Of a stretch of DNA of 32,000 bases, positions 3,629 through 31,255 are shown piece after piece (position 1 is the first letter of the stretch; each line of letters opens with the position of its first letter). This DNA is from Candidatus Lokiarchaeum ossiferum. Its GTDB lineage: Archaea; Asgardarchaeota; Lokiarchaeia; Sigyniarchaeales; Promethearchaeaceae. The DNA is taken from positions 5,430,001 through 5,462,000 of the forward strand of contig CP104013.1 of the NCBI GenBank assembly GCA_025839675.1. Direction: 5' to 3'. The position numbers and the translations under genes are program-made. The notes beneath the pieces are model-generated. The model saw only the letters and a program-made list of their open reading frames with translations. It searched no databases and was not told the origin of the DNA.

Positions 3629-4669
3629 TTGAGTTATGAAGAAATGCCAGCAGGAACCGTTCCTGTTTTTTTTGTCTTGGTTTTCTCCACCTTTTCTTGT
3701 TTTCTGTTAACAATTATTCTGGCAATGAAATGGAAAGAAAGAAGACGTAGAAGTGTTTACTCATTGAGAAATTTGTTCTTTTCCTTATTCCTTGCATGTA
3801 TTTTCTTAATTTCTGCTATGATTCAAGGATATATCACCGGATATAAACTGATTTTTTATCGAATTGCTTATACCTTATTCATCGGTTTTTTGGCATGTTC
3901 TCTTTTCTTCTTAATTCAATTTGGTCAGGAGATATTCAATGTATTTAAGAAGTCGTATAACTACCATTTCATTTTTATTGCCATTTTAGTTATATTGCTT
4001 ATACTTCCCAACAATTATTATGGTTTTCCTTCTGATGGAAAAACAGACTTTGGCCCATCAATCCGGATTTTTTCTTCTACATTATTCGTTGTGTATCAAA
4101 CCTATCTCTATGCTTTATTGGCCATTAAATCATTTTCTGCCTATCTTCAAGTGTCAGATAGCTATGCAAAAATCGGTTTTATGTTTATCGGAATTTCGCA
4201 AGTTTCAATGTTAGCCAATCAATTTTTTCTTGTATTGGATGTGATAGCTTTTACATTTTGGGGAAATAAAGGTGGTTACTCTATTTTTACCACTATTGGG
4301 TGGATATTTGTAGGCTTGTTTACCTTTTCGAGTTATATGGGGCTTTTACTTCCTGGATTCTTGCACAGAAGAGAATTACCAAACACCTCATTAGAAAAAG
4401 TTAAATCTCAATTGATCGAAGAAGATCCTATCCAAGTCAAGATCGCTGAGATTCATGATAGATCCTTACTCGTAAGATGTCCAACTTGCAAGTTAACCAA
4501 AGAAATTGTGTTAAAAAGTGAATTAGTATATTCGATCAAAATTCAAGAAAAAGATATTATGTCCATTACTATTGAAGAAAATATCATATGTCCTCATAGA
4601 TTTCAAATATACTTGGACAAAAATCTTCAAATACGAGGGTTTACACCAATTGATTATTTTAAAGGTTAA
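3629..4669 (+). CDS. Seven-TM membrane protein with a C-terminal cytosolic CPTC...CxH zinc-ribbon-like module
   Basis: 346-aa ORF. I count about 7 hydrophobic helices within residues 10-245. The soluble tail contains RCPTCK...ICPHRFQIYLDKNLQIR. GGAGGA at 3614-3619 lies 9 nt upstream of the TTG start. Confidence 0.7.
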   Translation: MSYEEMPAGTVPVFFVLVFSTFSCFLLTIILAMKWKERRRRSVYSLRNLFFSLFLACIFLISAMIQGYITGYKLIFYRIAYTLFIGFLACSLFFLIQFGQEIFNVFKKSYNYHFIFIAILVILLILPNNYYGFPSDGKTDFGPSIRIFSSTLFVVYQTYLYALLAIKSFSAYLQVSDSYAKIGFMFIGISQVSMLANQFFLVLDVIAFTFWGNKGGYSIFTTIGWIFVGLFTFSSYMGLLLPGFLHRRELPNTSLEKVKSQLIEEDPIQVKIAEIHDRSLLVRCPTCKLTKEIVLKSELVYSIKIQEKDIMSITIEENIICPHRFQIYLDKNLQIRGFTPIDYFKG

Positions 4670-5077
4670 ATTACATTTTTATGTCACTATTCTACCGATT
4701 TTAAACTTTTTGACCAAGATTTTTGGATATTTTCTCCGTTCTGAATCATGATGAAAATGAATGTTTGTTTTTTTTATTTCCCTATTTAAGTTGTAGTATA
4801 GATTTCCTGCTTGTATTTAGAAAAAAATTTTTCTGAATTTGACATAATTAAAAAATCTCAATATTAAGTGAACAAAGTATGAAAATCTTTAAAAAATTGA
4901 ATTTTCGATTGAAGATATGCATCTTTGTCAATGGGAAAGGGGTGGGTATTTATGAAACATTTATGATTTTTATTAATATTGAAGGGGAAATGTTATAAGT
5001 AAGATTTAAGTTAATGATTTTAAGGGAAGTTTTTCCAAGAGATCCATTTCTACCCATAGCGGTTGGTGAAATCAAAA

Positions 5078-5767
5078 ATGAAGGAAATTATCTTTGAAAT
5101 AATTGAAAATTTACTCGATCTATCTGCTTTTGAATTGGAATATCGTCATCGAGCCAAATCAAATCCCTTCAGCGAGAAATGGATCAACTGTACTCGTTCA
5201 AGAGCCAGAATTAAGAAAGTAAAAAATTATTTATACTCTCAAATTAAAATTGTGTTAGATAGTGATAAAAGTCAAGAATTTTATGAAATTGCTTTGCGTC
5301 CTTTTATTCGTCAAACTTTAGAAGAAATACAGAAGTCTATTGTTGAATTTGGGGAATCTAAAGAAAATATTCTATACCAGGCAGTATTTTTTAAATTATC
5401 TTTAGATGATTTATTTATTTTATTTACGAATTTAATTGCTTGGGAACATCAAATCTATCCGGCATTATTAGAGCATGCCATTTTTGAATCATCGCATATT
5501 CGCGAGGAAATCGTTCCTACTGACGATTATTTGAGATATTATGTGCGATTTTTGGATGTGTTATCTTCCAGTGAAATAATCTCTCTCTTTGATTTAGATG
5601 CTCTAAAGAACACCATTCTATCTGATCAAGATCAAATTGATAAAAAACCATTAAGTTCTTTGCATTTGTTTGAAGATTGGCCAATGCTTAACTTGGAATC
5701 GTTTTCCCACCGTTTTCCGCATTTTAAAGAAAATTTAGCCCAAAAAATGGCCGACTCAAAATCCTAA
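5078..5767 (+). CDS. Hypothetical protein (predicted all-alpha; no motif recognised)
   Basis: The long ORF is 5063..5767. I prefer ATG 5078 because GGTGA lies 8 nt upstream. Coding is inferred from length and context only. Confidence 0.5.
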   Translation: MKEIIFEIIENLLDLSAFELEYRHRAKSNPFSEKWINCTRSRARIKKVKNYLYSQIKIVLDSDKSQEFYEIALRPFIRQTLEEIQKSIVEFGESKENILYQAVFFKLSLDDLFILFTNLIAWEHQIYPALLEHAIFESSHIREEIVPTDDYLRYYVRFLDVLSSSEIISLFDLDALKNTILSDQDQIDKKPLSSLHLFEDWPMLNLESFSHRFPHFKENLAQKMADSKS

Positions 5768-9450: not shown

Positions 9451-9611
9451 TTAGTTTTCCTCTGTGTTTATATTTTTTATTAACGAAAAAAGGATTGCAT
9501 GTCAAAAAAGTTTGATTTTTCTGAAAATTTCTATAAGGATGTTATTATAACCTAAAGAACAAAGTTATACCGAAAATGTGCATGGAAATGCTGCAATACC
9601 AGTTTGAATTT

Positions 9612-9734
9612 GCGTCTGTTATCAACTGATATTGAAGTTAAGCCAATGCTTAACTAACGAATAATAATAATAGCGTCGATGGGGATTTTAATGCACCCTT
9701 GATGGATATGAGAAGATAAAACTTTAACAGACGC
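9612..9734. other. Nested inverted repeats (possible structured RNA or 5' leader) in the 360-bp spacer upstream of ileS
   Basis: An outer 10-bp inverted repeat pairs gcgtctgtta (9612-9621) with taacagacgc (9725-9734). Inside it is a perfect 8-bp hairpin, agttaagc-caat-gcttaact (9636-9655). No ORF of 60 aa or more lies here. Confidence 0.25.
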
Positions 9735-9810
9735 TTGCATAACAAATAGAAGAAGGAGTACATTCATAAAAATTTGATTAAAAAGATTGTAAAATTGAAA
9801 AAAAAAGATA

Positions 9811-10029
9811 TTATTTATAGTGCATAAGTGCTTCCATTTGTTGTGTTTTAAAGGCTTGAAATCTTTCAGGTGTTAAATCTTGGTTTAAATCTTGTTCGTT
9901 GGTTAAAAATTGCTTTAATGCTTGTCGAACTGCTTCAGAACGACTTGGAAAGTATCCCATGTTGACCATTGTTTCTAAACAATCTAAATATTGATCTGGA
10001 ATGTTGATAGTAACGATTTTCATTGTCAT
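9811..10029 (-). CDS. Ribbon-helix-helix (CopG/Arc/MetJ-type) transcriptional regulator
   Basis: 72 aa. The N-terminal beta-strand plus helices pattern is KIVTINIPDQYLDCLETMVNMGYFPSRSEAVRQALKQFL, the canonical RHH signature with SRSE. GAGAGG lies upstream of the ATG (SD-like). Confidence 0.75.
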   Translation of the reverse strand: MTMKIVTINIPDQYLDCLETMVNMGYFPSRSEAVRQALKQFLTNEQDLNQDLTPERFQAFKTQQMEALMHYK

Positions 10030-10108
10030 GTGAACCTCTCGAGGTTGAGTTGGTAGTCGATAAATATATAAATTTTACCATCTAAAATCCAAATTTTGAA
10101 TATCTGGG

Positions 10109-10150
10109 TTTTGTCGGTAAAATTCTTCGATATTCTTTTTTTGTCGGCAA
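10109..10150. promoter_or_regulatory. Direct repeat TTTTGTCGG(T/C)AA x2 with 30-bp periodicity, a candidate operator in the divergent RHH / nreA promoter region
   Basis: ttttgtcggtaa at 10109-10120 and ttttgtcggcaa at 10139-10150. They lie 80-120 bp upstream of the RHH gene start (10029). Confidence 0.3.
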
Positions 10151-10410
10151 CCCTATTAAAACATTTTTACACTTGTAGAACCTTTTCCCATTAACATTTA
10201 ATGTCTCGCTACTATTAGGATGTTAAAGAAAAAACATCGAGTTTAAATAGAAGACCAAATACATTTAAAATTTCTTGTTAGCTCTACAACATCTTCAAAG
10301 AAAGACAATTTCTTTGAATTATAATACACCATGATAGAGATCTTTATTAAAAAGGAGAGTCATTTTTATATGATTATCGATTTTCGATTTTTCAGCAGAG
10401 ATAGTTATTG

Positions 10411-11766
10411 ATGATGTCATCAGAATCCGATTCAGTGAACATTTGTATAAAATGTAAGGGGGCACGGTTATTGTGCGGAAAATCACAATGTCCTATCTTG
10501 ATGAAAAATTCTATTTTAAAGAGTACTTTGACAATTGATCCAAAAGAAATTAAATCCAATCAGAATATTTTTGGCGCTTCTCCTCCCGCTGTCTTTGTTG
10601 GACATGTGGGATATCCTAGGGTGAATATTGGTCCTTTACTTCCTATTGGGGAATATGCAGTGGAAAAAAATACGGGATTTTTAGATTCACCGGAATCTTG
10701 GTTTGGGAAACCCCTTGAGGAAATCGTAAAGTATCGATCAGGGATGGTTCGTTCAAATTTCTCCATTGGAGTACGTTATCAAGATAATATTGATAAAATT
10801 CTTGGTGATTTAAACCGAACCAATCGTAAAATGCTAGAATCAACCCAGGAATTAACCATGGCTTCAAATTCTGTTGATACTGAAGCAAAATTGTCACATA
10901 TTCGTGTTTCTATGCGATATGATAGCAGCAGTGCGCCCAACGGCCCATCGGGCAGAGCAGAAAAAATTGATGTAATTGATAATGTTAAGGTTTTAAAACC
11001 GGTGGATAAGGTCATCTCCGATAAAGATTTGAAATCATCAGAAGCTATCTATGGCTATCTCTATAAATCGGATGATATATCGACAACTTCTATGCAACGT
11101 TTATTATCTGCTGGATTATTAGGAGTGAAAAAAAATCGTCGATTAGTCCCAACTCGTTGGGCGATCACTGCTGTTGACACAATTATCAGTAAGAGTGTTG
11201 CGAAATCAATAAAGCATTATCCCAGTATAGATAAGTATTACACATTCACCAATGATTATCTTGATAACCATTTTATAATATTATTTATGCCCGGTCCATG
11301 GGCTTTCGAAATGAACGAACATTGGCATTCTGAGTCCATTTGGAATCAAGATATTTTTGGCTTATATCCTACTAATATTGCTGAACCGGTAATCGTTAAT
11401 GATTACGAGCTCGAAAATGGAAGGAAAAAGTATGCGGATAATATTACAGGGGCTTATTATGCTGCACGTAAAGAAATTGTGGAATTCTTATCGAAATCTC
11501 GCCGCCAATCGCGAGCCATTGTATTTCGTGAAATCCGTGGAGGATATATACTTCCTTTAGGTGTGTGGGTAATTCGAGAAACGGTGAGACAAGCCTTGCA
11601 AAACGGATGGAAAGGATCCAATGTGATCCAACATGAATCTCTAAAGGATGCTTTACAAGTAATAAATAATCGTTTTAAAGTACCCTTAAAACACTGGTTA
11701 AAAGCAAGTAAATTAGTTCCCTATTCAAAAACTCAAAAACGCTTAGATTTTTGGATAAAAAATTAA
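10411..11766 (+). CDS. nreA: Archaeal Nre-family DNA repair protein (NreA-like) with a C-terminal PCNA-interacting PIP box
   Basis: The N-terminal CIKCKGARLLCGKSQCP motif is characteristic of the Nre N-terminal domain, and the size (about 450 aa) fits. The extreme C-terminus, QKRLDFW (11734-11754), matches the PIP consensus Qxx[LIM]xx[FY][FYW]. The ORF track starts at TTG 10408; ATG is at 10411. Confidence 0.6.
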   Translation: MMSSESDSVNICIKCKGARLLCGKSQCPILMKNSILKSTLTIDPKEIKSNQNIFGASPPAVFVGHVGYPRVNIGPLLPIGEYAVEKNTGFLDSPESWFGKPLEEIVKYRSGMVRSNFSIGVRYQDNIDKILGDLNRTNRKMLESTQELTMASNSVDTEAKLSHIRVSMRYDSSSAPNGPSGRAEKIDVIDNVKVLKPVDKVISDKDLKSSEAIYGYLYKSDDISTTSMQRLLSAGLLGVKKNRRLVPTRWAITAVDTIISKSVAKSIKHYPSIDKYYTFTNDYLDNHFIILFMPGPWAFEMNEHWHSESIWNQDIFGLYPTNIAEPVIVNDYELENGRKKYADNITGAYYAARKEIVEFLSKSRRQSRAIVFREIRGGYILPLGVWVIRETVRQALQNGWKGSNVIQHESLKDALQVINNRFKVPLKHWLKASKLVPYSKTQKRLDFWIKN

Positions 11767-11890: not shown

Positions 11891-12436
11891 ATGAGTGCTG
11901 CTTCCCTTACTAATCCCGTTGAAATTTTGAAGTTACTTAATTCTAAATTGGAGGAAGATAAATCTCTTGGATATGAAGCTTTTCTTAGGCGTACTCATTG
12001 GTTTTCTGGTACAACGGCGAATGATCTGAAACGTTTTGCATGCAATCAATTGAATGTCAAACCTCGGGATGTTCTTGCATCTATTAAAAATATTGAACCT
12101 GCATTTCTCTGGGCAAGTCAAGATGGTCTTGAAACAGCAAAACTTAAAATGGTTGAAGCCGCCCATGCCTATTCAAAAATAATTGAAGCAAGCCTCCCTC
12201 CGGTAATAGTGTGGAATTTTTTTGATTCTCAAGCCATTCGCCTAATTGTTCATGATGGTCATCATCGAACTTACTATGCTCATAGGAATGGGATTCGGAT
12301 TCCAGCAGTGATCTTAGAACCTTTAGGCAATTATTCCAAGATGGAAGATAAGTTTCGCTATGCCTTCCAGATTAGAACCCGGGTAATCGATTTACCTGTA
12401 TCTAGAACAAAACATTTTGATATTGTCACAAGATAA
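11891..12436 (+). CDS. ParB/Srx-fold (ParB-like nuclease domain) protein, paralog 1
   Basis: 181 aa. The core PPVIVW...LIVHDGHHRTYYAHRNGIRIPAVILE matches the ParB N-terminal domain pattern (x-D-G-h-H-R-x-x-A...ipa). Confidence 0.6.
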   Translation: MSAASLTNPVEILKLLNSKLEEDKSLGYEAFLRRTHWFSGTTANDLKRFACNQLNVKPRDVLASIKNIEPAFLWASQDGLETAKLKMVEAAHAYSKIIEASLPPVIVWNFFDSQAIRLIVHDGHHRTYYAHRNGIRIPAVILEPLGNYSKMEDKFRYAFQIRTRVIDLPVSRTKHFDIVTR

Positions 12437-12459
12437 TAATCCATGAAAAATGATGAGAG

Positions 12460-13077
12460 ATGTTAATGAAATCCTACGAAATTGACTGGCAACATATTGA
12501 AGTGGAACAATTCTCCCGGGAGCATTTAAAACATTTCACTACTGTTGATATAAAGAAGATGTTTCTAAGGGAGAAGGTTCCTATGGTTCCTGAATTAGCA
12601 TATCTTTCATTTCTCATGCATAGTGCTTGGGGTGTTAACTTTGATATCCAGCGAGGTGTTGATCGAACCCTTTTGCAATTGAGATTGCCTTTATTTGAAG
12701 GTAAAGGTTTAAGTTGGAAAGAAAGACGGTTAAATCCTGAAAAAATTTGGGCTTCAGAAGATTCCTTAGATTTTGATAAAGTTGAAATGGTTACCGCTGC
12801 GATTAAATACATGCTTAAAACTAACAAACCCATACCTCCGGTAGTTGTTTGGCTCATTAAAACTGAATCAAAGTATAATTTAGTACAACACGATGGGCAT
12901 CATAGAACTTATGTTTGTAATAAATTGGGAATTCGTGTTCCTGCAGTAGTTTTAGAATATTGGATAGATAATCGAGAAAATCCCCTCTTGCATAAAAGGT
13001 TGCATTACCGAGAAATCGATACATACGTAACTGAAATGCCCATAGTTAAACGACAATTTTCTGAAGCACGAAAATAA
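12460..13077 (+). CDS. ParB/Srx-fold (ParB-like nuclease domain) protein, paralog 2
   Basis: 205 aa. The core PPVVVW...LVQHDGHHRTYVCNKLGIRVPAVVLE, plus the upstream WASEDSLD block, is collinear with paralog 1 (WASQDGLE). Confidence 0.6.
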   Translation: MLMKSYEIDWQHIEVEQFSREHLKHFTTVDIKKMFLREKVPMVPELAYLSFLMHSAWGVNFDIQRGVDRTLLQLRLPLFEGKGLSWKERRLNPEKIWASEDSLDFDKVEMVTAAIKYMLKTNKPIPPVVVWLIKTESKYNLVQHDGHHRTYVCNKLGIRVPAVVLEYWIDNRENPLLHKRLHYREIDTYVTEMPIVKRQFSEARK

Positions 13078-13144
13078 AATAATTTAGGAAAAACATTAAA
13101 TCTATTATCTCAGAATTTTTAATTTGTGAAGTATTACAGTTGTA

Positions 13145-13933
13145 TTGATCAGTATGGATTATTCTGAAAAATATACTTATGCAGTGGAAATGCTTTCGTC
13201 TTTCAAAAATTACTTAGAAGTCAAAGATTTCCGCAAATTCTTGCTTCTTATCTTAAATTTAGAATCTATGGGTCCAGAAGCTATGTTAAAACAGCTTGGA
13301 ATGGGTTCCAAAGGGAAAACAATTTTACCATACAACCCCGAAAAGAAAATGTACTTTACTAAAGTGATGTCTGGCTTTTCGTTAAATCATCAACTCACTA
13401 TTTATTCACCGATTGAAAGGATCAATACCAAATTTGTGAATAAATCCAATTCAGAGTTATTTACAAAATACTTGACAGAATTTGAACGGAAGAAGTTATT
13501 ACCTGGAAAATTTATGTTAATTAATCCAGAGGTAATTGATCAATCACACAAAGCGCTCTCTGAAAAAAATTCTCCTAAAATCTCTACTCCAGGAATAGAA
13601 TCCTTATATTTAAATTTACGGGAGTTAATTGCCACACAAAACATAAAGTTTATTTTCTTGCTTGAAGCCGATAAGGCAGATATAGCATTCATCATGAATA
13701 TGAATGTTGAACCAAGTCATGATTCTGAAAATTCTATCCAATATTTCGATGTTTACGTTGATGAAAAGAAAGAAATGCGGGATCACACTTTTATTCGAAT
13801 GAAAAATGGAGATTCGGATTCTGATGAAATAACTATGGAATTTTTGGATGAAATCAAGGATATGTCCCATTCTGATTTATTTGACTCGCATTTTACCATC
13901 ATTGTTCCTATTTCTTCCATGGACATGCCTTAA
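13145..13933 (+). CDS. Hypothetical protein
   Basis: 262-aa ORF (TTG 13145; alternative ATG 13154), followed by a T8 tract. No motif recognised. Confidence 0.5.
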   Translation: MISMDYSEKYTYAVEMLSSFKNYLEVKDFRKFLLLILNLESMGPEAMLKQLGMGSKGKTILPYNPEKKMYFTKVMSGFSLNHQLTIYSPIERINTKFVNKSNSELFTKYLTEFERKKLLPGKFMLINPEVIDQSHKALSEKNSPKISTPGIESLYLNLRELIATQNIKFIFLLEADKADIAFIMNMNVEPSHDSENSIQYFDVYVDEKKEMRDHTFIRMKNGDSDSDEITMEFLDEIKDMSHSDLFDSHFTIIVPISSMDMP

Positions 13934-15117: not shown

Positions 15118-16227
15118 TTAGAGTGTTTCAATGAACCCTTTTTTTGTAAATCCTTCAAGTATTTCTGGTAATTTATGGAGCTCAAATGTTAAAAGGCGAT
15201 CACGGGCAATATTTTGTAATTCACTGATTATTTTATCAATGGACATGTTCCCATTTTTTCGAAGCAATCTTAAGGTGTGCTTTTCAGTAACATCTGGAAG
15301 ATTTTCTGCTTGTCTAATGTGAGTTTTTTCATTATACAAAAATAATTTTCCTTCCAGTTTTTTATGGATCATTTTCATAATATCCTCTTCGGAAGAATCC
15401 TCCACGGATAAATGCGTTATTTTAAATTCATTTCTTCTCCGCATAACTCCAATCATCGCAGAAGTGAACATATCTTGATGTTGTTCATCACTCTTTTTCA
15501 AAAATTTAATTACTTTATCAATTTTCTCGTTTTCCATGTCTTTAATATCATCAGAAAATTTGCGAAGATAATCTATATAGTTTTTTGTATAGATGGCTTG
15601 AAGTTTAATCGATCCCTTCATCAACAATTTCATAATTGTCTCCAAGGGTTCGGCATCACTGTCTCCAAAAGGTTTGTAGACGCTAAGATTATAAATTACA
15701 TTAAACACAGTGTGATTTTGTAACCGTTCTTTTTGATTTTCACTAAATTCTAAATATCGCTCAGGGGTAAAAATGTTTGTGGTTTCTATTATATCGGGAA
15801 ACAATTTTGCCAGCAGATTGAAGATGACCACAAATCGTTCCTGTGAAGGATCATTTTCAATCAATACCAAATGACTCTCAATATAACAAGCATAAATTAA
15901 GGACCGTAAATCTTTTTCTGAAATAAATTTTAAAACATTTTTCATATCTAAATTAACAGAATCAGCTTTCGTTAGTGCATCATTCTTAATTTTATTGGCC
16001 TTCTTTGCCTCATCTTGTAAACTAAATTCGAGTACGAGGTAATCCCGAACGGCAAAGTTTTTATCGATGTAAGCATAAAATTCATGCTCACAGACCATTC
16101 CCGAAGGAATATAAACAGATGTTGCACCGGTTTCTTTTTTTTTTATAATATCAACTGGAGCGGCAATTTTTTTACTTTTTGAACATGTTGGACATATAAT
16201 ATTGACTTTCTTGATGTTAGTTGACAT
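15118..16227 (-). CDS. Soluble protein with an N-terminal CPTC...CxH zinc-ribbon-like module and a possible C-terminal winged-helix domain
   Basis: 369 aa. Residues 8-68 (ICPTCSKSKKI...VCEHEFYAYIDKNFAVR) are collinear with the tail of the 7TM protein at 4460-4666. The C-terminal segment LRLLRKNGNMSIDKIISELQNIARDRLLTFELHKLPEILEGFTKKGFIE looks wHTH-like; that is an inference. Confidence 0.6.
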   Translation of the reverse strand: MSTNIKKVNIICPTCSKSKKIAAPVDIIKKKETGATSVYIPSGMVCEHEFYAYIDKNFAVRDYLVLEFSLQDEAKKANKIKNDALTKADSVNLDMKNVLKFISEKDLRSLIYACYIESHLVLIENDPSQERFVVIFNLLAKLFPDIIETTNIFTPERYLEFSENQKERLQNHTVFNVIYNLSVYKPFGDSDAEPLETIMKLLMKGSIKLQAIYTKNYIDYLRKFSDDIKDMENEKIDKVIKFLKKSDEQHQDMFTSAMIGVMRRRNEFKITHLSVEDSSEEDIMKMIHKKLEGKLFLYNEKTHIRQAENLPDVTEKHTLRLLRKNGNMSIDKIISELQNIARDRLLTFELHKLPEILEGFTKKGFIETL

Positions 16228-16310: not shown

Positions 16311-17687
16311 TCATTTTTTTTGAAGAAAGCTTTTGATTGAAGGGATTTTCTCTTGAAATTCGGATAATACCCCAATGAAAGGTTTTTCAGTTAAATTCTC
16401 CAAAATTCTCTTTATACCGTACAATTTGGTTTCTTTTAGCTCTAAATTCCCTTCTGCTAAAAATGAAATGTAGTAACCTTTGACCTCAGAAAATAGTATA
16501 AATCTATATCTCTGAAATCCTAATTTAACTGAAATCCAGTGAGGCATAAGTGTTGTATTGGCTATTGTATTCGCCGCAATTGCTTCGATTTTAGCGGTGA
16601 TAAGCGCTTCTTTTAACTCTATTAAATTTTCCTCCGCATCAGGATCATCAAGATCAATGGGTGGCAACCCAGTGATTTCTAGATGACTGGAGATCAAACT
16701 TGAAATGACTCCGATTGATTGATAACTTAGCCCAAAATAATCTATTCGCAAGAAATCATCAACCGATTGGAGAGTATTTGGTGAAAAGATATCATCGAAC
16801 TTCACATATTCTTCCAACATATACAATACTCGCTTTTCAAAATTCTGAGTTAACTTGTACAATTCAATTTTTGATAGTATTGATGGGTCTCTTGATTGCA
16901 AAAGTTCATGAAATGCCACTTTCATCTGATTTAGCAACCAAGCCGCTTTTTTATCTTGAAAATTACCAAATATCATGAATAGTAGTTGGGGGCTTCCCAA
17001 ATAGTAACAAATTTCTTCAGCTCCACCTTTTGGAGGTGCTAATAACATGCGATCCAACTCCCCACTTAAAATAGATGTTGCAATATAATCTAAATTGGAC
17101 CCCAATTCCAAAAAATATTCATATTTTGAATTTGATGAAAAGAGATTTTGGCGTTCTTTGGTTATTATCCCCATAAATTTCATGAATTCCCCATGATTTC
17201 CCAAAAAAATTTTGTCTTGGCTGAGATCAGCTTTAAACTTTGTTTTTGCCTTGACCCGCACCCGGTGATCAGAATCTGAGATTTTTGATTTGGAAATAGC
17301 AATATTACCTACATTTTCATTAGGTTGGTACGCTTGATTTGAAAAGATAACTCCTTTTTTTGTGTTTATCTTGAGATTTCTAGTCAAATCATCAGCTTTC
17401 TTCATCTCAGATGCTGTTGGAGGAAGAAGTGTATTAAATACTGGTTTTTTTGTCGAGATCTTGTTTTTCCGGTTCGAACAATCACTCTGGTGAATGGAAA
17501 TGTTGAATAATGACGCACTATTTTCTGTTGAAGTTGTGAAATTCCCTTCTTTTTTTTCATTTTCCTCTACTAAAACACTTGAATCGAATGCGCATTTGCA
17601 ATTTGGACAATAAATTGGATAAGGAGAATATGCGATATAATTGCACTCTGGACACTTTTTTTTTTTAGTTTTATCCGAAAATAACAT
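16311..17687 (-). CDS. Zinc-ribbon protein (CPEC...CPNC) with a low-complexity linker and a C-terminal globular region of about 300 aa of unknown function
   Basis: 458 aa. The N-terminus KKCPECNYIAYSPYPIYCPNCKCAF is a classical 4-Cys zinc ribbon. An S/N/K-rich stretch follows. There is no oligo-U tract in the 83-bp gap to the downstream gene at 15118..16227. Confidence 0.6.
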   Translation of the reverse strand: MLFSDKTKKKKCPECNYIAYSPYPIYCPNCKCAFDSSVLVEENEKKEGNFTTSTENSASLFNISIHQSDCSNRKNKISTKKPVFNTLLPPTASEMKKADDLTRNLKINTKKGVIFSNQAYQPNENVGNIAISKSKISDSDHRVRVKAKTKFKADLSQDKIFLGNHGEFMKFMGIITKERQNLFSSNSKYEYFLELGSNLDYIATSILSGELDRMLLAPPKGGAEEICYYLGSPQLLFMIFGNFQDKKAAWLLNQMKVAFHELLQSRDPSILSKIELYKLTQNFEKRVLYMLEEYVKFDDIFSPNTLQSVDDFLRIDYFGLSYQSIGVISSLISSHLEITGLPPIDLDDPDAEENLIELKEALITAKIEAIAANTIANTTLMPHWISVKLGFQRYRFILFSEVKGYYISFLAEGNLELKETKLYGIKRILENLTEKPFIGVLSEFQEKIPSIKSFLQKK

Positions 17688-21473: not shown

Positions 21474-21842
21474 ATGATCTCGGATATCAGAACCCAATTT
21501 CAAAGTTTCACACTATTCACATATATTTATTTCAGCTTAGCAATAATATTCCTATTGGTTGCCTATTTTTCAATTCCAAAAATGAACAGATCCCTTGCTG
21601 GAAAAGTAATCTCTTTAATTCTGGTGATCTGGGCTTTTACTCTAATTAATTTTCCATTTTTGTGGATTCTGATAGCATTATCTGTTGGACTACTTTATTC
21701 TATTTTTAATGATTCTCGATTGCAACAATTATTCATTATAGATGAAGATATTTTATTTGTGGATAAAAAACCGCAAGTTTGGGAGAAATTTGAAGTGCCT
21801 CCAGAACTGAGAGTAAATAATCCGGAGGGCCTTGAATCATGA
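21474..21842 (+). CDS. Small membrane protein (3 predicted TM helices plus a soluble tail)
   Basis: 122-aa ORF. Its TGA stop overlaps the ATG of the next gene (ATGA at 21839-21842). Confidence 0.5.
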   Translation: MISDIRTQFQSFTLFTYIYFSLAIIFLLVAYFSIPKMNRSLAGKVISLILVIWAFTLINFPFLWILIALSVGLLYSIFNDSRLQQLFIIDEDILFVDKKPQVWEKFEVPPELRVNNPEGLES

Positions 21843-23293
21843 ATTCATATCTTTTATTAAATTCACCCTTAATTATTCTCTGTATTGGGCTTATATTGGC
21901 AATTCCAGATCGTAAAAAATTACAGAAGGGGTATCTTTCAACACTTATTTCTCTTATTCTGGCATTTTGTGCCAATACATTAAATCTTGTCTTCATTTTA
22001 ACTGATAATTCTCTGATATTGAATGAGAACAATTTATCCGTTTCCAGTTCTCCTCTCACTTATTGGATTGCCGAAATGTTCTTGTTTGTAGAAATTTTAT
22101 TCTATATAACTGGAAAAAACCCGATGCAAGTTTTTCATTCTCAATCACAATTTAATTTTATATTCTTAATGTTTGCAATTGGAATCCTTGGGATGATTTC
22201 TACTTTGAATCTTGCAATATTGGGTATGTTCTTACTTTGGACTCAAGTCTGTATCTATTATTTATTCTTTTTTGGGACTTACAAAAAAAACTTGAACACT
22301 ATTCGTATGTATAAGCAAATTATGATTATATCAACCATTATTTTGTTCAGTACTTTGGGTTTTCTTTATTTTATTGCGGGGACACTCAATATCTTGAGTT
22401 TAATCGTTTTATATACTACTTTCTCCCAAACCTCCCAAATAATAATTTTCCTTGGAATAATTCTGGGCGTAGGATTAAATTGTGGATTTTTCCCTATTTT
22501 GAATGGTCATCTCAAACAATACTACCTCGAATCGAATTTTATGAATCTATGGCTATATTCAACAATATTTGTTCCTGCATTAGCCTTTATTAGTTTGCGA
22601 TTGTTCTCAATTTTTTCTTTTTCCCAATCAAACCTGTATATCATCGGCGTTTTGTTGGCCGCGGTTTCTGGAGTATATTTTCTTCTTAATATTATTTATC
22701 AAGTATTCAAAAAAAATGTCCATGAAAAACGATGGATTTATCTGTTATTTGGAAATTTTTCCAGTTTAGAATATTTTGTTTACCTTTTAATTGGTCTCCA
22801 TTTAATTCCCATTAATTTGGATATAATAATGCTAAAAAATACCCTTATTTTTAATCTATTTTTGATTAGTATTATTGGAAAAGCTTTAATTTACGAAACA
22901 TTAACTCCAATCTTCCCACTTTTTGACAATTTCTATCTCAAAAATGTATCCCGTTTATTCAAAACCAATACATTTCATGCAATATTCTTGTGTATCCTTC
23001 CCCTTTTCTTCTTTTCTCCATATTTATCTGGTTATCAGTTAATCCAAGAATTATTGATTCTGTTTTTAGAAGATTTTCCTCAGATTTCTGTATTTTCTTG
23101 GCTTTCATTTGGGATAATTGGTGGATTCTTTATAGCACTTCTATTAATAATCGGGAAAATTATTACAGAGTGCTTAATTGGGACTAGTAAAAATGATGAA
23201 AAAATTAAAGTCGAAATGCACTCATCAATGACTTATTTAACGCCAATTATATTACTCGGGTCCTTCATTATTTTATTCATTTTTGTACCATAA
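21839..23293 (+). CDS. Polytopic membrane protein (about 14 TM helices), function unknown
   Basis: 484 aa and almost entirely hydrophobic. It is translationally coupled to the upstream small membrane protein. Any resemblance to antiporter-like (NuoN/Mrp) subunits is too weak to call. Confidence 0.55.
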   Translation: MNSYLLLNSPLIILCIGLILAIPDRKKLQKGYLSTLISLILAFCANTLNLVFILTDNSLILNENNLSVSSSPLTYWIAEMFLFVEILFYITGKNPMQVFHSQSQFNFIFLMFAIGILGMISTLNLAILGMFLLWTQVCIYYLFFFGTYKKNLNTIRMYKQIMIISTIILFSTLGFLYFIAGTLNILSLIVLYTTFSQTSQIIIFLGIILGVGLNCGFFPILNGHLKQYYLESNFMNLWLYSTIFVPALAFISLRLFSIFSFSQSNLYIIGVLLAAVSGVYFLLNIIYQVFKKNVHEKRWIYLLFGNFSSLEYFVYLLIGLHLIPINLDIIMLKNTLIFNLFLISIIGKALIYETLTPIFPLFDNFYLKNVSRLFKTNTFHAIFLCILPLFFFSPYLSGYQLIQELLILFLEDFPQISVFSWLSFGIIGGFFIALLLIIGKIITECLIGTSKNDEKIKVEMHSSMTYLTPIILLGSFIILFIFVP

Positions 23294-29167: not shown

Positions 29168-29824
29168 TTGGTCCGCATAAATATGTCTGGTGAGTTATTT
29201 TGGAAGATAGTTTTTTATGGAAGTGCAGGAACAGGAAAAACTACCATTATTGATACTTTACATAGAAAGACACTCGAAAATCCGGATTATAATCTCGAAC
29301 CCACCGGTCAAGTCACAAAAATTGCGAAAGCTAGTGGGGCCACGTTGTATTTTGATAGAGGCATTTTTCAATCCAGAATTCAAACAAATATTTTTTATCA
29401 CATTTTCACAGTAGCTGGACAGGAAAATTTAGCTCCTTTACGAAAGAAAATTCTCGATGGTGTTGATGCCATCGCTTTTGTTTTTGACGGGCAAAGATCA
29501 ATGTTAGACCGTAATCTAAAATCTCTTGATGAATTGAAAGAAACTTTGGGTCCCGCACTTATCCATGATATCCCAGTACTTATTTTAATCAATAAACAAG
29601 ATCTTCCCGATTCATTGAAACAAGAAGATGTATTTGAGATATTTTCTCGTCCAAATTTTCCTATATCTCAAAAAGAACTAGAACATCAAAATTTTGTAGG
29701 GTTCTTTGAAACTTGCGCACTTTATTCAAAGGAAATGAATATTTGTTCGAGTTTTATTGAATTAATTGAACAATTGTCTACGGACCCAAAATTGATCCCT
29801 AAACATCTAATCCAAAAAATTTAA
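29168..29824 (+). CDS. MglA-type small GTPase (Ras superfamily)
   Basis: G1 is YGSAGTGKTT. G3 is TVAGQE, with Thr in place of the usual Asp, as in MglA (TxxGQ). G4 is NKQD. ATLYFD and VDAIAFVFD blocks are as in MglA. GAGGT lies 6 nt upstream of TTG 29168 (alternative ATG 29183). Confidence 0.75.
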   Translation: MVRINMSGELFWKIVFYGSAGTGKTTIIDTLHRKTLENPDYNLEPTGQVTKIAKASGATLYFDRGIFQSRIQTNIFYHIFTVAGQENLAPLRKKILDGVDAIAFVFDGQRSMLDRNLKSLDELKETLGPALIHDIPVLILINKQDLPDSLKQEDVFEIFSRPNFPISQKELEHQNFVGFFETCALYSKEMNICSSFIELIEQLSTDPKLIPKHLIQKI

Positions 29825-29851: not shown

Positions 29852-31255
29852 TTATAAATAGGTTTCAATCAATGAATTGATTCGATTTTTGAATTCTGGC
29901 ATCAATTGATTTATATTGTTAATTTCAGTATCTTGATTTCTTAATAAACACAAAAGATAGACATCAATGTTATTCAAAGGTAGCTTGTAGAAAGTAATGA
30001 TATCATTGTCCATCTGCCACGTGGCTGTATTATGTTTAAGTAATCGGAACTCAGAAAATGTTTTAAACAAATTTTGAAAATGAGGTGCGGACATTTCTGA
30101 AACTTGACTGGAAACTTTATTTGTCGAGAAATCAGAAAGAATTACACTATTCTCATTGATTAATAAGAGTGCTTGAGCATTAATTTCCTGTGCAAACCAT
30201 TTCAATTGTTCGCGCAAAATCTCCCTATTTGGGGACATGAGCGAAATCCCTTCTGAAAAAGACTTATTGAGACTATAAGCGTTAAAGATTGATGTGTTAA
30301 AAAATTTGACTCGAAAATCCTTGGAATTTTCAAGTATTCGATTTTTAAGCAATTCAATTTTTTTTGTTAACTCATGATCTTCTTTGATATCAGGATCAGC
30401 TTTGTGAAAATTAACAACAATTGGTGGGTGTTGTTTAAAGGATCGAAATATATTTAAAATTTGAAAGAGAAATTCTAAGGCTTCCACATAACGCGTTTCA
30501 TCTCTGATATCAATTAAAAAATTTAATAAATTGGTATCGAAGAGATAAAGATCGGCTTGTTTCAGAAAATTCTGCCGGTATTTTAGCTGTCCGCCCACAT
30601 CCCATTCGAGTAAACTTTGCCCCAACATTTGATCTTGGGAACGTTCGATTCCTTTAGTGGGCTTTATTCCTGTTAGTTCACTATATCGTTGCTTAATAGC
30701 TCTTAGATAACTTGTCTTTCCGCTCGCATCCAAACCAGTAAATAATAATTTCAATTTTCGTGCATTGCTTATCGGTGAATTTACGTTTGAAACAAATTTA
30801 TCCACTTTTTCTAAAAGTTCCACCATAAATTCTTTTGAATCTTTTAGATAATTATCATGAGTTATTTTATCTGCTGTTTCTGAGAAATATATTGATAAAT
30901 CCTTCATATTCTCATATAAGAACGCTGCATGATTTTCATCAACAAGAATTGAAATTGTGGAGGCTTTTGCTTGGCCGCGAGCTTCCTTATCGTGGATAAG
31001 GAAGAAATATGTTAATCCGGTGAGACATAAATCTGGAAATGGTAAGATACCGAAATATTTGATGGAATCAAAAACTTGCCCTTCTTGGTAGATTTGTTCT
31101 CCCATGAGAAGTGAAATAGTTTTCATTGAAATGTTGATCTTATGGATTTCTGACATGTCTTCTGGAAAAGTTACCACGGGGGTGGGACCTTCATACTCAA
31201 AGACGGCAAAAATCAAACCCTTTATTATATTCGTTAACGATATTGCAGTTCCCAA
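29852..31255 (-). CDS. Multidomain GTPase: N-terminal longin-like domain, Arf/Arl-like GTPase domain, C-terminal roadblock-like domain
   Basis: 467 aa. The central domain carries Arf-family signatures: G1 GLDASGKT (Arf: GLDAAGKT), PTKG, and G3 WDVGGQ (identical to Arf). G4 is degenerate (FHKAD). The N-terminal ~130 aa (LIFAVFEYEGPTPVVTFPED...YFGILPFPD...) and C-terminal ~130 aa have alternating beta/alpha patterns suggestive of longin and roadblock folds; that is an inference. TTG start with GAGGGG 6 nt upstream. Confidence 0.7.
   Translation of the reverse strand: MGTAISLTNIIKGLIFAVFEYEGPTPVVTFPEDMSEIHKINISMKTISLLMGEQIYQEGQVFDSIKYFGILPFPDLCLTGLTYFFLIHDKEARGQAKASTISILVDENHAAFLYENMKDLSIYFSETADKITHDNYLKDSKEFMVELLEKVDKFVSNVNSPISNARKLKLLFTGLDASGKTSYLRAIKQRYSELTGIKPTKGIERSQDQMLGQSLLEWDVGGQLKYRQNFLKQADLYLFDTNLLNFLIDIRDETRYVEALEFLFQILNIFRSFKQHPPIVVNFHKADPDIKEDHELTKKIELLKNRILENSKDFRVKFFNTSIFNAYSLNKSFSEGISLMSPNREILREQLKWFAQEINAQALLLINENSVILSDFSTNKVSSQVSEMSAPHFQNLFKTFSEFRLLKHNTATWQMDNDIITFYKLPLNNIDVYLLCLLRNQDTEINNINQLMPEFKNRINSLIETYL

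Follow-up and report, generated by a model that had tools for sequence, protein, structure and literature searches.

A 32,000-nucleotide stretch of the genome of Candidatus Lokiarchaeum ossiferum (contig CP104013.1, positions 5,430,001 to 5,462,000; "the window" denotes this whole stretch) encodes a membrane protein of 346 amino acids (aa) with about seven transmembrane segments, referred to as the 7-TM protein, and a soluble protein of 369 aa, which carry copies of one homologous domain of ~65 residues. This domain, termed the module, forms the predicted cytosolic tail of the 7-TM protein and the N-terminus of the 369-aa protein. A first-pass annotation of the window, made from the letters alone, drew attention to the likeness; both open reading frames (ORFs) and the peptides quoted from them are found where that annotation had placed them. 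The features of the two genes are listed here, with coordinates counted from the first letter of the window.

3629..4669, plus strand: gene for the 346-aa membrane protein
3629..4363, plus strand: transmembrane core, residues 1-245, with ~7 transmembrane segments
4460..4666, plus strand: module copy 1, a putative zinc module, residues 278-346 of the 346-aa protein (predicted cytosolic tail)
4478-4480, 4487-4489, 4589-4591 and 4595-4597, plus strand: putative metal ligands C284, C287, C321 and H323 of copy 1
4610-4624, plus strand: Y-L-D-K-N motif of copy 1, followed by R336 at 4634-4636
15118..16227, minus strand: gene for the 369-aa soluble protein, which comprises the module, a long helix, a DENN-like alpha/beta core, a helical region and a winged-helix-like end
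16024..16206, minus strand: module copy 2, a putative zinc module, residues 8-68 of the 369-aa protein (N-terminus)
16192-16194, 16183-16185, 16090-16092 and 16084-16086, minus strand: putative metal ligands C12, C15, C46 and H48 of copy 2
16057-16071, minus strand: Y-I-D-K-N motif of copy 2
15538..15945, minus strand: alpha/beta core of the 369-aa protein, ~residues 95-230
15121..15345, minus strand: winged-helix-like C-terminal region, ~residues 295-369, with the order helix-strand-helix-helix-strand

The two copies align collinearly with a single 3-residue gap, as the annotation had described; residues 284-338 of the 346-aa protein match residues 12-63 of the 369-aa protein, with 19 of 55 positions identical (BLASTP, single comparison, E 4e-8). 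Because the 14-sequence profile used for the family search included both window sequences, non-circular tests were run with profile hidden Markov models (HMMs), the E-values being computed for a database of 1.84e9 sequences. With an HMM made only from modules of the 369-aa family, the 7-TM tail scores 39.5 bits (E 3.8e-5). With a second HMM, made from 135 modules that belong to neither family, the score is 65.5 bits (E 3.4e-13) for the 7-TM tail and 90.6 bits (E 4.9e-21) for the N-terminus of the 369-aa protein. Chance similarity is thereby ruled out. A six-frame HMM scan of the window returns the two copies only (90.6 and 65.5 bits; next best, 5.7 bits), and the pattern C..C...C.H...D[KR]N is present in a six-frame regular-expression scan only at the same two places.

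The shared Cys2-Cys-His signature and the [YF]-x-D-K-N-x3-R block are properties of this homologous module, the invariance first noticed for the block holding for its Asp and its Arg. Over 179 module copies, each residue of the C-P-x-C is conserved in 100%, the Cys and the His of the C-x-H in 99% each and the Phe that follows in 97%; the Asp of the DKN is present in 100%, the Lys in 79% (with Arg in a further 9%), the Asn in 87%, the Arg in 99%, the Tyr after the Arg in 83% and a downstream acidic residue (Asp or Glu) in 96%. The motif is also kept in orthologues of the two window proteins, which had been suggested as a check. In a 30-member alignment of the 369-aa family, C12, P13, C15, C46, F50, Y51, Y53, D55, N57 and R61 are invariant, H48 is conserved in at least 90% of members, and the Y-x-D-x-N...R-D-Y block is invariant or nearly so. 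The 7-TM orthologue P0037 retains CPTC...CPHRFQIYLD, but has NH instead of KN.

AlphaFold2 models the 7-TM tail module, from a 60-sequence alignment, with a mean predicted local distance difference test score (pLDDT) of 94.6. The model consists of a strand (2-7), the CPTC, a second strand (14-19), a helix (21-29), a third strand (34-39), the C-x-H at 45-47, a fourth strand (49-54), the D-K-N turn and a fifth strand (59-64). The elements follow each other in the same order at the N-terminus of the modelled 369-aa protein, so that the predicted layout in both contexts is beta1-[CPxC]-beta2-alpha-beta3-[CxH]-beta4-[DKN turn]-beta5. Since the four Cys/His residues are placed on two turns in the manner of zinc knuckles, the models point to one tetrahedral metal site; the two Cys of the first hairpin, together with the Cys and the His before strand 4, would hold one metal, most likely zinc.

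The module had been said not to correspond to a named domain, and this agrees with the libraries searched, against which its novelty holds. Scans of both window proteins, 144 family members and the subgroups with Pfam-A 2025 and NCBIfam 2026 give no model above the cut-off for the module, and PADLOC models scanned over the same proteins give nothing above cut-off either. Matches of the module to Pfam below threshold (E 0.007-0.3) include Zn_Ribbon_YjdM (0.007) and Zn_ribbon_Elf1 (0.16), and Brz matches one of 144 module proteins at E 1.4e-5, below its cut-off. A profile search of PDB sequences with the module returns non-significant knuckle matches only (Elf1, E 0.78; a TMEM106B peptide). The suggested Foldseek comparison of the AlphaFold module model yields no significant structural neighbour below E 0.05: the best match in the PDB is 9a8g_B, a chain of the Mis18 complex (E 0.44; template modelling score (TM-score) 0.33; root-mean-square deviation 13 A), and the best in BFVD has E 0.056. 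A local likeness to the CSL/Kti11 zinc finger ('C-x-[DH]-RFQIYLD') reaches only 8 bits with the order of the knuckles reversed and was taken as coincidence. No specific prior description of the module was met in the literature searched, which covered Liu et al. (see below) in part; it may already figure as a generic 'Zn ribbon' in earlier Asgard surveys.

Among known folds, zinc ribbons (Elf1, TFIIB-type, Pfam Zn_ribbon) come nearest. Like them, the module is small and has, in its predicted fold, an N-terminal C-P-x-C knuckle on a beta-hairpin (invariant, and between strands 1 and 2 in the models) and a second putative ligand pair ahead of another strand (the C-x-H just before strand 4), which would give four ligands and probably one zinc ion. 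It differs from them in the second knuckle, which is typically CxxC in zinc ribbons, in the helix and extra strand between the knuckles, in its own F-x2-[YF]-x-D-K-N-[FL]-x-[VI]-R-[GD]-Y-x3-D block, and in the lack of a significant HMM or Foldseek match. Mis18 proteins carry zinc-binding Yippee-like domains, and Mss4 is a regulator of Rab proteins; the top, non-significant Foldseek match of the module to a Mis18 chain is no evidence of a relationship to the Mss4/Yippee/Mis18 group of zinc-binding beta folds. The module is rated as a putative small zinc-stabilized interaction domain and not as a categorically new kind: it is closest to zinc-ribbon knuckles, yet matches no ribbon profile significantly, and it occupies a longin-like position (see below), yet matches no longin structure.

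HMMER, run exhaustively over 1.84 billion representative proteins with the 14-sequence profile as a search of the kind recommended to define the family and its domain partners, finds 681 proteins (50%-identity clusters) at E <= 1e-3, of which 332 lie at E <= 1e-10, with many partner domains. Two peptide patterns taken from one module subgroup locate 279 confirmed loci in species-representative genomes. Of these, 80 are listed, and they come from Promethearchaeota/-ia (the former Lokiarchaeota; 56), Hodarchaeota (8), Hermodarchaeota (3), Thorarchaeota (1) and entries titled 'uncultured archaeon' (12). All organism-named genome matches listed are Asgard archaea, mostly Lokiarchaeota. Of 181 proteins retrieved, 151 have the module at the N-terminus, 12 at the C-terminus and 4 internally, while 5 carry it in tandem and 9 consist of it alone; in all cases with a legible topology, it lies on the predicted cytoplasmic side. 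Clustering of the non-module parts of the retrieved proteins gives the following architecture groups, beside which there are many singletons.

Group A, 42 proteins: the 369-aa family and shorter relatives
Group B, 38 proteins: a family of ~280 aa
Group C, 32 proteins: proteins of 130-305 aa with a C-terminal conserved EIYEEFWEFIDDDN..F.EFI..D.RRK motif
Group D, 12 proteins: the module with a further domain that has no assigned identity
7-TM group, 3 proteins

Partners recognized by Pfam among the singletons include PAS domains, a RING finger and a PARP catalytic domain, as well as Ig-like and NosD or beta-helix ectodomains. In the type-I membrane proteins P0193, P0225, P0231, P0237 and P0245, the module is C-terminal, after a single transmembrane segment and behind an ectodomain. 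Direct fusions to small GTPases occur as well: P0188 consists of an Arf-like GTPase, the module and a Ras-like GTPase, and the protein encoded at L078:3007-3720 joins the module to a Ras/Rab-like GTPase (Ras, E 1.6e-39). A roadblock domain, looked for in the group that combines the module with a further unassigned domain (A8), finds no support in a PDB profile search or in Pfam. Altogether the module is a real, conserved, Asgard-restricted domain that is promiscuously fused, including to DENN-like cores and small GTPases.

Two of the groups have features of their own. Group B includes two syntenic loci, in two lineages, at which a conserved gene for a ~160-aa protein with several hydrophobic segments is followed by a tandem pair of paralogous genes for module-plus-core proteins; at three other group-B loci the module gene is single. 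The tandem genes (L091:4440-6847 and L088:4257-6926) encode ~283-aa paralogues that are 43% and 65% identical within their respective pairs, and the L091 locus lies ~1.5-3.5 kb from genes for Snf7, Vps4 and ESCRT-II. By analogy, the tandem paralogues recall the paired longin-DENN heterodimers of eukaryotes. Group C (P0122, P0123, P0129 and ~30 others), which holds the commonest module proteins, ends in an acidic/aromatic motif, L-[KR]-E-I-Y-E-E-F-W-E-F-I-D-D-D-N-x2-F-x-E-F-I-x2-D-x-R-R-K.

The 369-aa family has 35 matches across Lokiarchaeia, all annotated as 'hypothetical', and all its named members, including one from Promethearchaeum syntrophicum, are from Lokiarchaeia. The AlphaFold2 model (30-sequence alignment; pLDDT 85.7) places the module before a long helix (70-90), the alpha/beta core (~95-230) and further helices that lead to the winged-helix-like end. 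The four best Foldseek matches of the full model in the PDB are to DENND1B (3tw8; E 1.8e-4 and 1.8e-3) and DENND1A (6ekk; E 2e-3 and 8e-3), with probabilities of 0.96-1.0, and lower ranks (E 0.13-1.9) include 8dhb_J of the active FLCN GAP complex (0.13), 7mge_B of C9orf72-SMCR8-WDR41 and 6nzd_I of the lysosomal folliculin complex. The modelled alpha/beta core probably contributes most to these matches. Because the best structural matches are all to the DENN family, a DENN-like GTPase regulator is a more probable identity for the 369-aa protein than the DNA-binding protein proposed at first. Of the winged helix-turn-helix (HTH) proposed for its C-terminus, the order of secondary-structure elements fits; the matches are weak, namely an Lrp/AsnC-type HTH (2ia0, E 0.064, in a profile search of PDB sequences) and MCM4_WHD (E 1.4, in one member).

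In eukaryotic DENN proteins the core is preceded by a longin domain, the uDENN lobe, as in DENND1A/B, folliculin and SMCR8/C9orf72. The longin domain has ~120 aa and the order beta-beta-alpha-beta-beta-beta-alpha-alpha. In the 369-aa family, the module is likewise N-terminal to a DENN-like core and shares the order beta-beta-alpha-beta-beta-beta followed by a helix. The module differs in having about half the size and a putative metal site, and in being found also away from any DENN core, on membrane-protein tails, beside GTPases or alone. Liu, Makarova et al. (bioRxiv 10.1101/2020.10.19.343400, published in Nature in 2021) describe a conserved Asgard DENN operon consisting of genes for a LAMTOR1-like roadblock protein, a Rab-like GTPase and a DENN protein. 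The 369-aa family is plausibly among the Asgard DENN proteins reported there; its gene context differs from that operon.

The membrane protein carrying copy 1 and the 369-aa protein each match a hypothetical protein of Ca. Lokiarchaeum ossiferum at 100% identity. The TTG start of the membrane-protein gene at 3629 has a GGAGG 10 nt ahead of it, and an alternative ATG at 3644 corresponds to the 341-aa NCBI version. On a simple hydrophobicity scale the transmembrane core has six strong hydrophobic segments and a weaker one (~residues 146-168); by the positive-inside rule (a K/R-rich loop at 32-48 after the first segment and HRR after the last), the predicted orientation is N-out/C-in, so that the description as a 7-TM protein with a cytosolic tail is plausible. 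The core matches no family in Pfam, NCBIfam or the PDB (best, ExoD at E 0.037 and the YnaI transmembrane region at E 0.011). P0038, a more distant homologue of the core, is a complete gene for the core alone without the module, and the module is therefore regarded as an accreted domain of the 7-TM protein. A split gene pair encoding the 7-TM core and the module was considered and set aside, as no module ORF lies near P0038. The P0038 locus (L085:267-2663) is 0.7 kb from an opposite-strand gene for a 311-aa Gtr1/RagA-like GTPase.

The reading favored here, at a probability of roughly 0.45, is that the module is a zinc-stabilized protein-docking module of Asgard small-GTPase/DENN networks. It would be a mobile cytoplasmic domain used in many architectures, among them two DENN-like families, the 369-aa and the ~280-aa one, in which it would form the N-terminal lobe. 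With a docking surface around the invariant Asp and Arg and the conserved K-N...[GD]-Y...D residues, the module would draw its carrier into membrane-associated regulatory assemblies of the small-GTPase/DENN type, by binding either another copy of itself or a partner that the carriers share, for instance a small GTPase. Within the 369-aa protein it would sit where eukaryotic DENN proteins have their uDENN/longin lobe, and in the 7-TM protein it would serve as a handle that plugs a membrane protein into the small-GTPase/DENN network. The link to GTPases is drawn because the top structural matches are DENND1B/1A and because there are direct fusions of the module with Ras/Rab-like and Arf-like GTPases; the docking role is drawn from the cytosolic tails of type-I proteins, the tandem and stand-alone forms and the paired group-B paralogues. 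Homotypic adaptors of eukaryotic signalling (death fold, TIR, PB1 and SAM) are distributed in the same way, over receptor tails, cytosolic effectors, tandem arrays and stand-alone forms, and are related to the module neither in sequence nor in structure.

Several results weigh against this docking reading. Foldseek is the sole source of the DENN assignment of the 369-aa protein, and the TM-scores of its DENN matches are just 0.27-0.30. Pfam DENN, uDENN, dDENN and Folliculin models match none of 30 members of the 369-aa family at E values up to 10, and a profile search of PDB sequences with the 369-aa protein returns no DENN protein. The core of the ~280-aa family matches that of the 369-aa family weakly by hhalign (E 0.05). 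Neither longin nor roadblock domains are among the Foldseek matches of the module by itself. Genes beside the commonest module genes (group C) show no enrichment in GTPases, with 3 GTPase-like ORFs, one of them a fusion, in 80 loci, where the neighbors are mostly housekeeping genes; and with PAS, RING and PARP among its partners, the module reaches beyond GTPase biology.

The first-pass annotation had gone on to suggest, as speculation, that the two window proteins form a membrane-sensor-to-effector pair joined by a common interaction module. The general part of this idea, a shared interaction module that links membrane proteins and cytosolic effectors, is compatible with the domain distribution. 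A dedicated pair is not supported, because the module is common to hundreds of proteins: it occurs in 681 clusters with many architectures, the two genes are 11 kb apart, and P0038 has no module.

If the module has no partner in common between its carriers, it may be a purely structural metal-stapled cap, or a redox or metal sensor, spread by easy domain shuffling; the diversity of its partners (PAS, RING, PARP and ectodomain receptors) and the lack of a conserved gene neighborhood in the commonest family would suit such a role. Even so, this is doubtful, since polar residues that are not ligands are near-invariant across architectures (Asp 100%, Arg 99%, Lys/Arg 88%, Asn 87%, Asp/Glu 96%), a degree of polar conservation that, provided these residues are exposed at the surface, is more typical of a binding site than of a mere staple. 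The weak likeness to the Elf1 zinc ribbon, the sub-threshold matches to several Zn_ribbon families and the winged-helix-like end with its 2ia0 match would instead suggest a nucleic-acid-binding ribbon, the 369-aa protein then being a regulator of transcription or of nucleic acids with a C-terminal winged helix. This is unlikely: the ribbon matches are all non-significant and confined to the CPxC knuckle, the module is found on membrane-protein tails and beside GTPases, the core of the 369-aa protein best matches DENN-family folds, and winged helices are also frequent as protein-protein modules.

Two further readings start from the position of the module before the DENN-like core. In one, the module is an evolutionary derivative of the longin (uDENN) domain, miniaturized and metal-stapled, that binds or acts on a GTPase, for example via the invariant Arg. 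The shared N-terminal position, the order of elements up to the long helix, which is that of the start of a longin, the invariant Arg itself and the existence of GTPase fusions are in its favor. It is nevertheless unlikely: a longin is about twice as large as the module, the copy on the 7-TM tail has no C-terminal helices, Foldseek of the module alone gives the negative result noted above for longin and roadblock domains, and hhalign of the module against a folliculin (FLCN)-like longin region encoded in the same window gives no match. Because the module alone resembles neither longin structures nor the FLCN-like longin of the window, its equivalence to a longin lobe can be entertained only tentatively. 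In the other, the module is a novelty specific to Asgard archaea that stands in for the longin lobe in DENN-type regulators and acts as a homotypic or GTPase-binding handle on 7-TM and type-I receptor tails, to which module-bearing DENN-like regulators and GTPases would be recruited. This too is improbable; if true, it would amount to a receptor-to-small-GTPase relay in archaeal relatives of eukaryotes, built on a fold without a solved counterpart.

Small GTPases, longin/roadblock proteins and DENN proteins have undergone large expansions in Asgard archaea, which are poorly understood and are central to ideas on the origin of eukaryotic membrane trafficking. The module is an unnamed conserved putative metal-binding domain, found in at least 681 clusters, that physically links DENN-like proteins, GTPase domains and the cytosolic tails of membrane proteins. 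It offers a concrete handle for questions on the wiring of these networks in L. ossiferum, which is in culture. It is a candidate for a new Pfam/InterPro family, through which hundreds of Asgard proteins now called 'hypothetical' would be better annotated; should it prove a generic zinc-ribbon staple only, the gain would not go beyond annotation.

The 7-TM gene lies ~11 kb from the 369-aa gene, among unrelated (housekeeping) genes; its closest downstream neighbor is a 234-aa ORF (5063..5767, plus strand) with no Pfam or NCBIfam match. Directly upstream of the 369-aa gene, on the same strand, is a gene that keeps this position in L. ossiferum, P. syntrophicum and another Loki metagenome-assembled genome.

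16311..17687, minus strand: gene for a 458-aa protein, in which a classical CxxC...CPxC zinc ribbon is joined by a variable linker to two domains of strong conservation

A profile search with the 458-aa protein matches only generic zinc ribbons. It was considered as a paralogous partner of the 369-aa protein and rejected, as hhalign shows no relation to the 369-aa family and the module is missing. The 83-bp spacer between the two genes holds a TATA-like 'cctataaagg', so the two genes may be transcribed separately. The wider synteny around the 369-aa gene (Nre, several small genes and purD) is conserved too, and the adjacency of the 458-aa and 369-aa genes alone is therefore weak evidence of a functional link. 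In the window, the Nre gene (10408..11766, plus strand) is followed by three conserved small genes (11891..13933, plus strand; 181, 205 and 262 aa) without a family match; in P. syntrophicum and a further Loki genome these four genes likewise adjoin the 369-aa gene, so that the synteny here is broad and not specific.

Elsewhere in the window, a 484-aa ORF (21839..23293, plus strand) has no Pfam or NCBIfam match. Neither tRNA genes (ARAGORN) nor Rfam families at the gathering threshold are found in the 32 kb, and the ~950-bp stretch at 9451-10407, which holds no ORF of at least 100 aa, is likewise without a tRNA or Rfam match. Near the right-hand end lie two adjoining GTPase genes, the longer of which encodes the FLCN-like longin region mentioned above.

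29168..29824, plus strand: gene for a 218-aa Arf/Rag-like small GTPase, adjoining the next gene
29852..31255, minus strand: gene for a 467-aa protein with a central Gtr1/RagA-type GTPase (residues 169-382, E 1e-22)

The N-terminal region of the 467-aa protein has a weak Pfam Folliculin match (E 5e-4) and an 'EYEGPTP' stretch, which resembles the GP motif of FLCN/SMCR8-type longins (PMC12290439).

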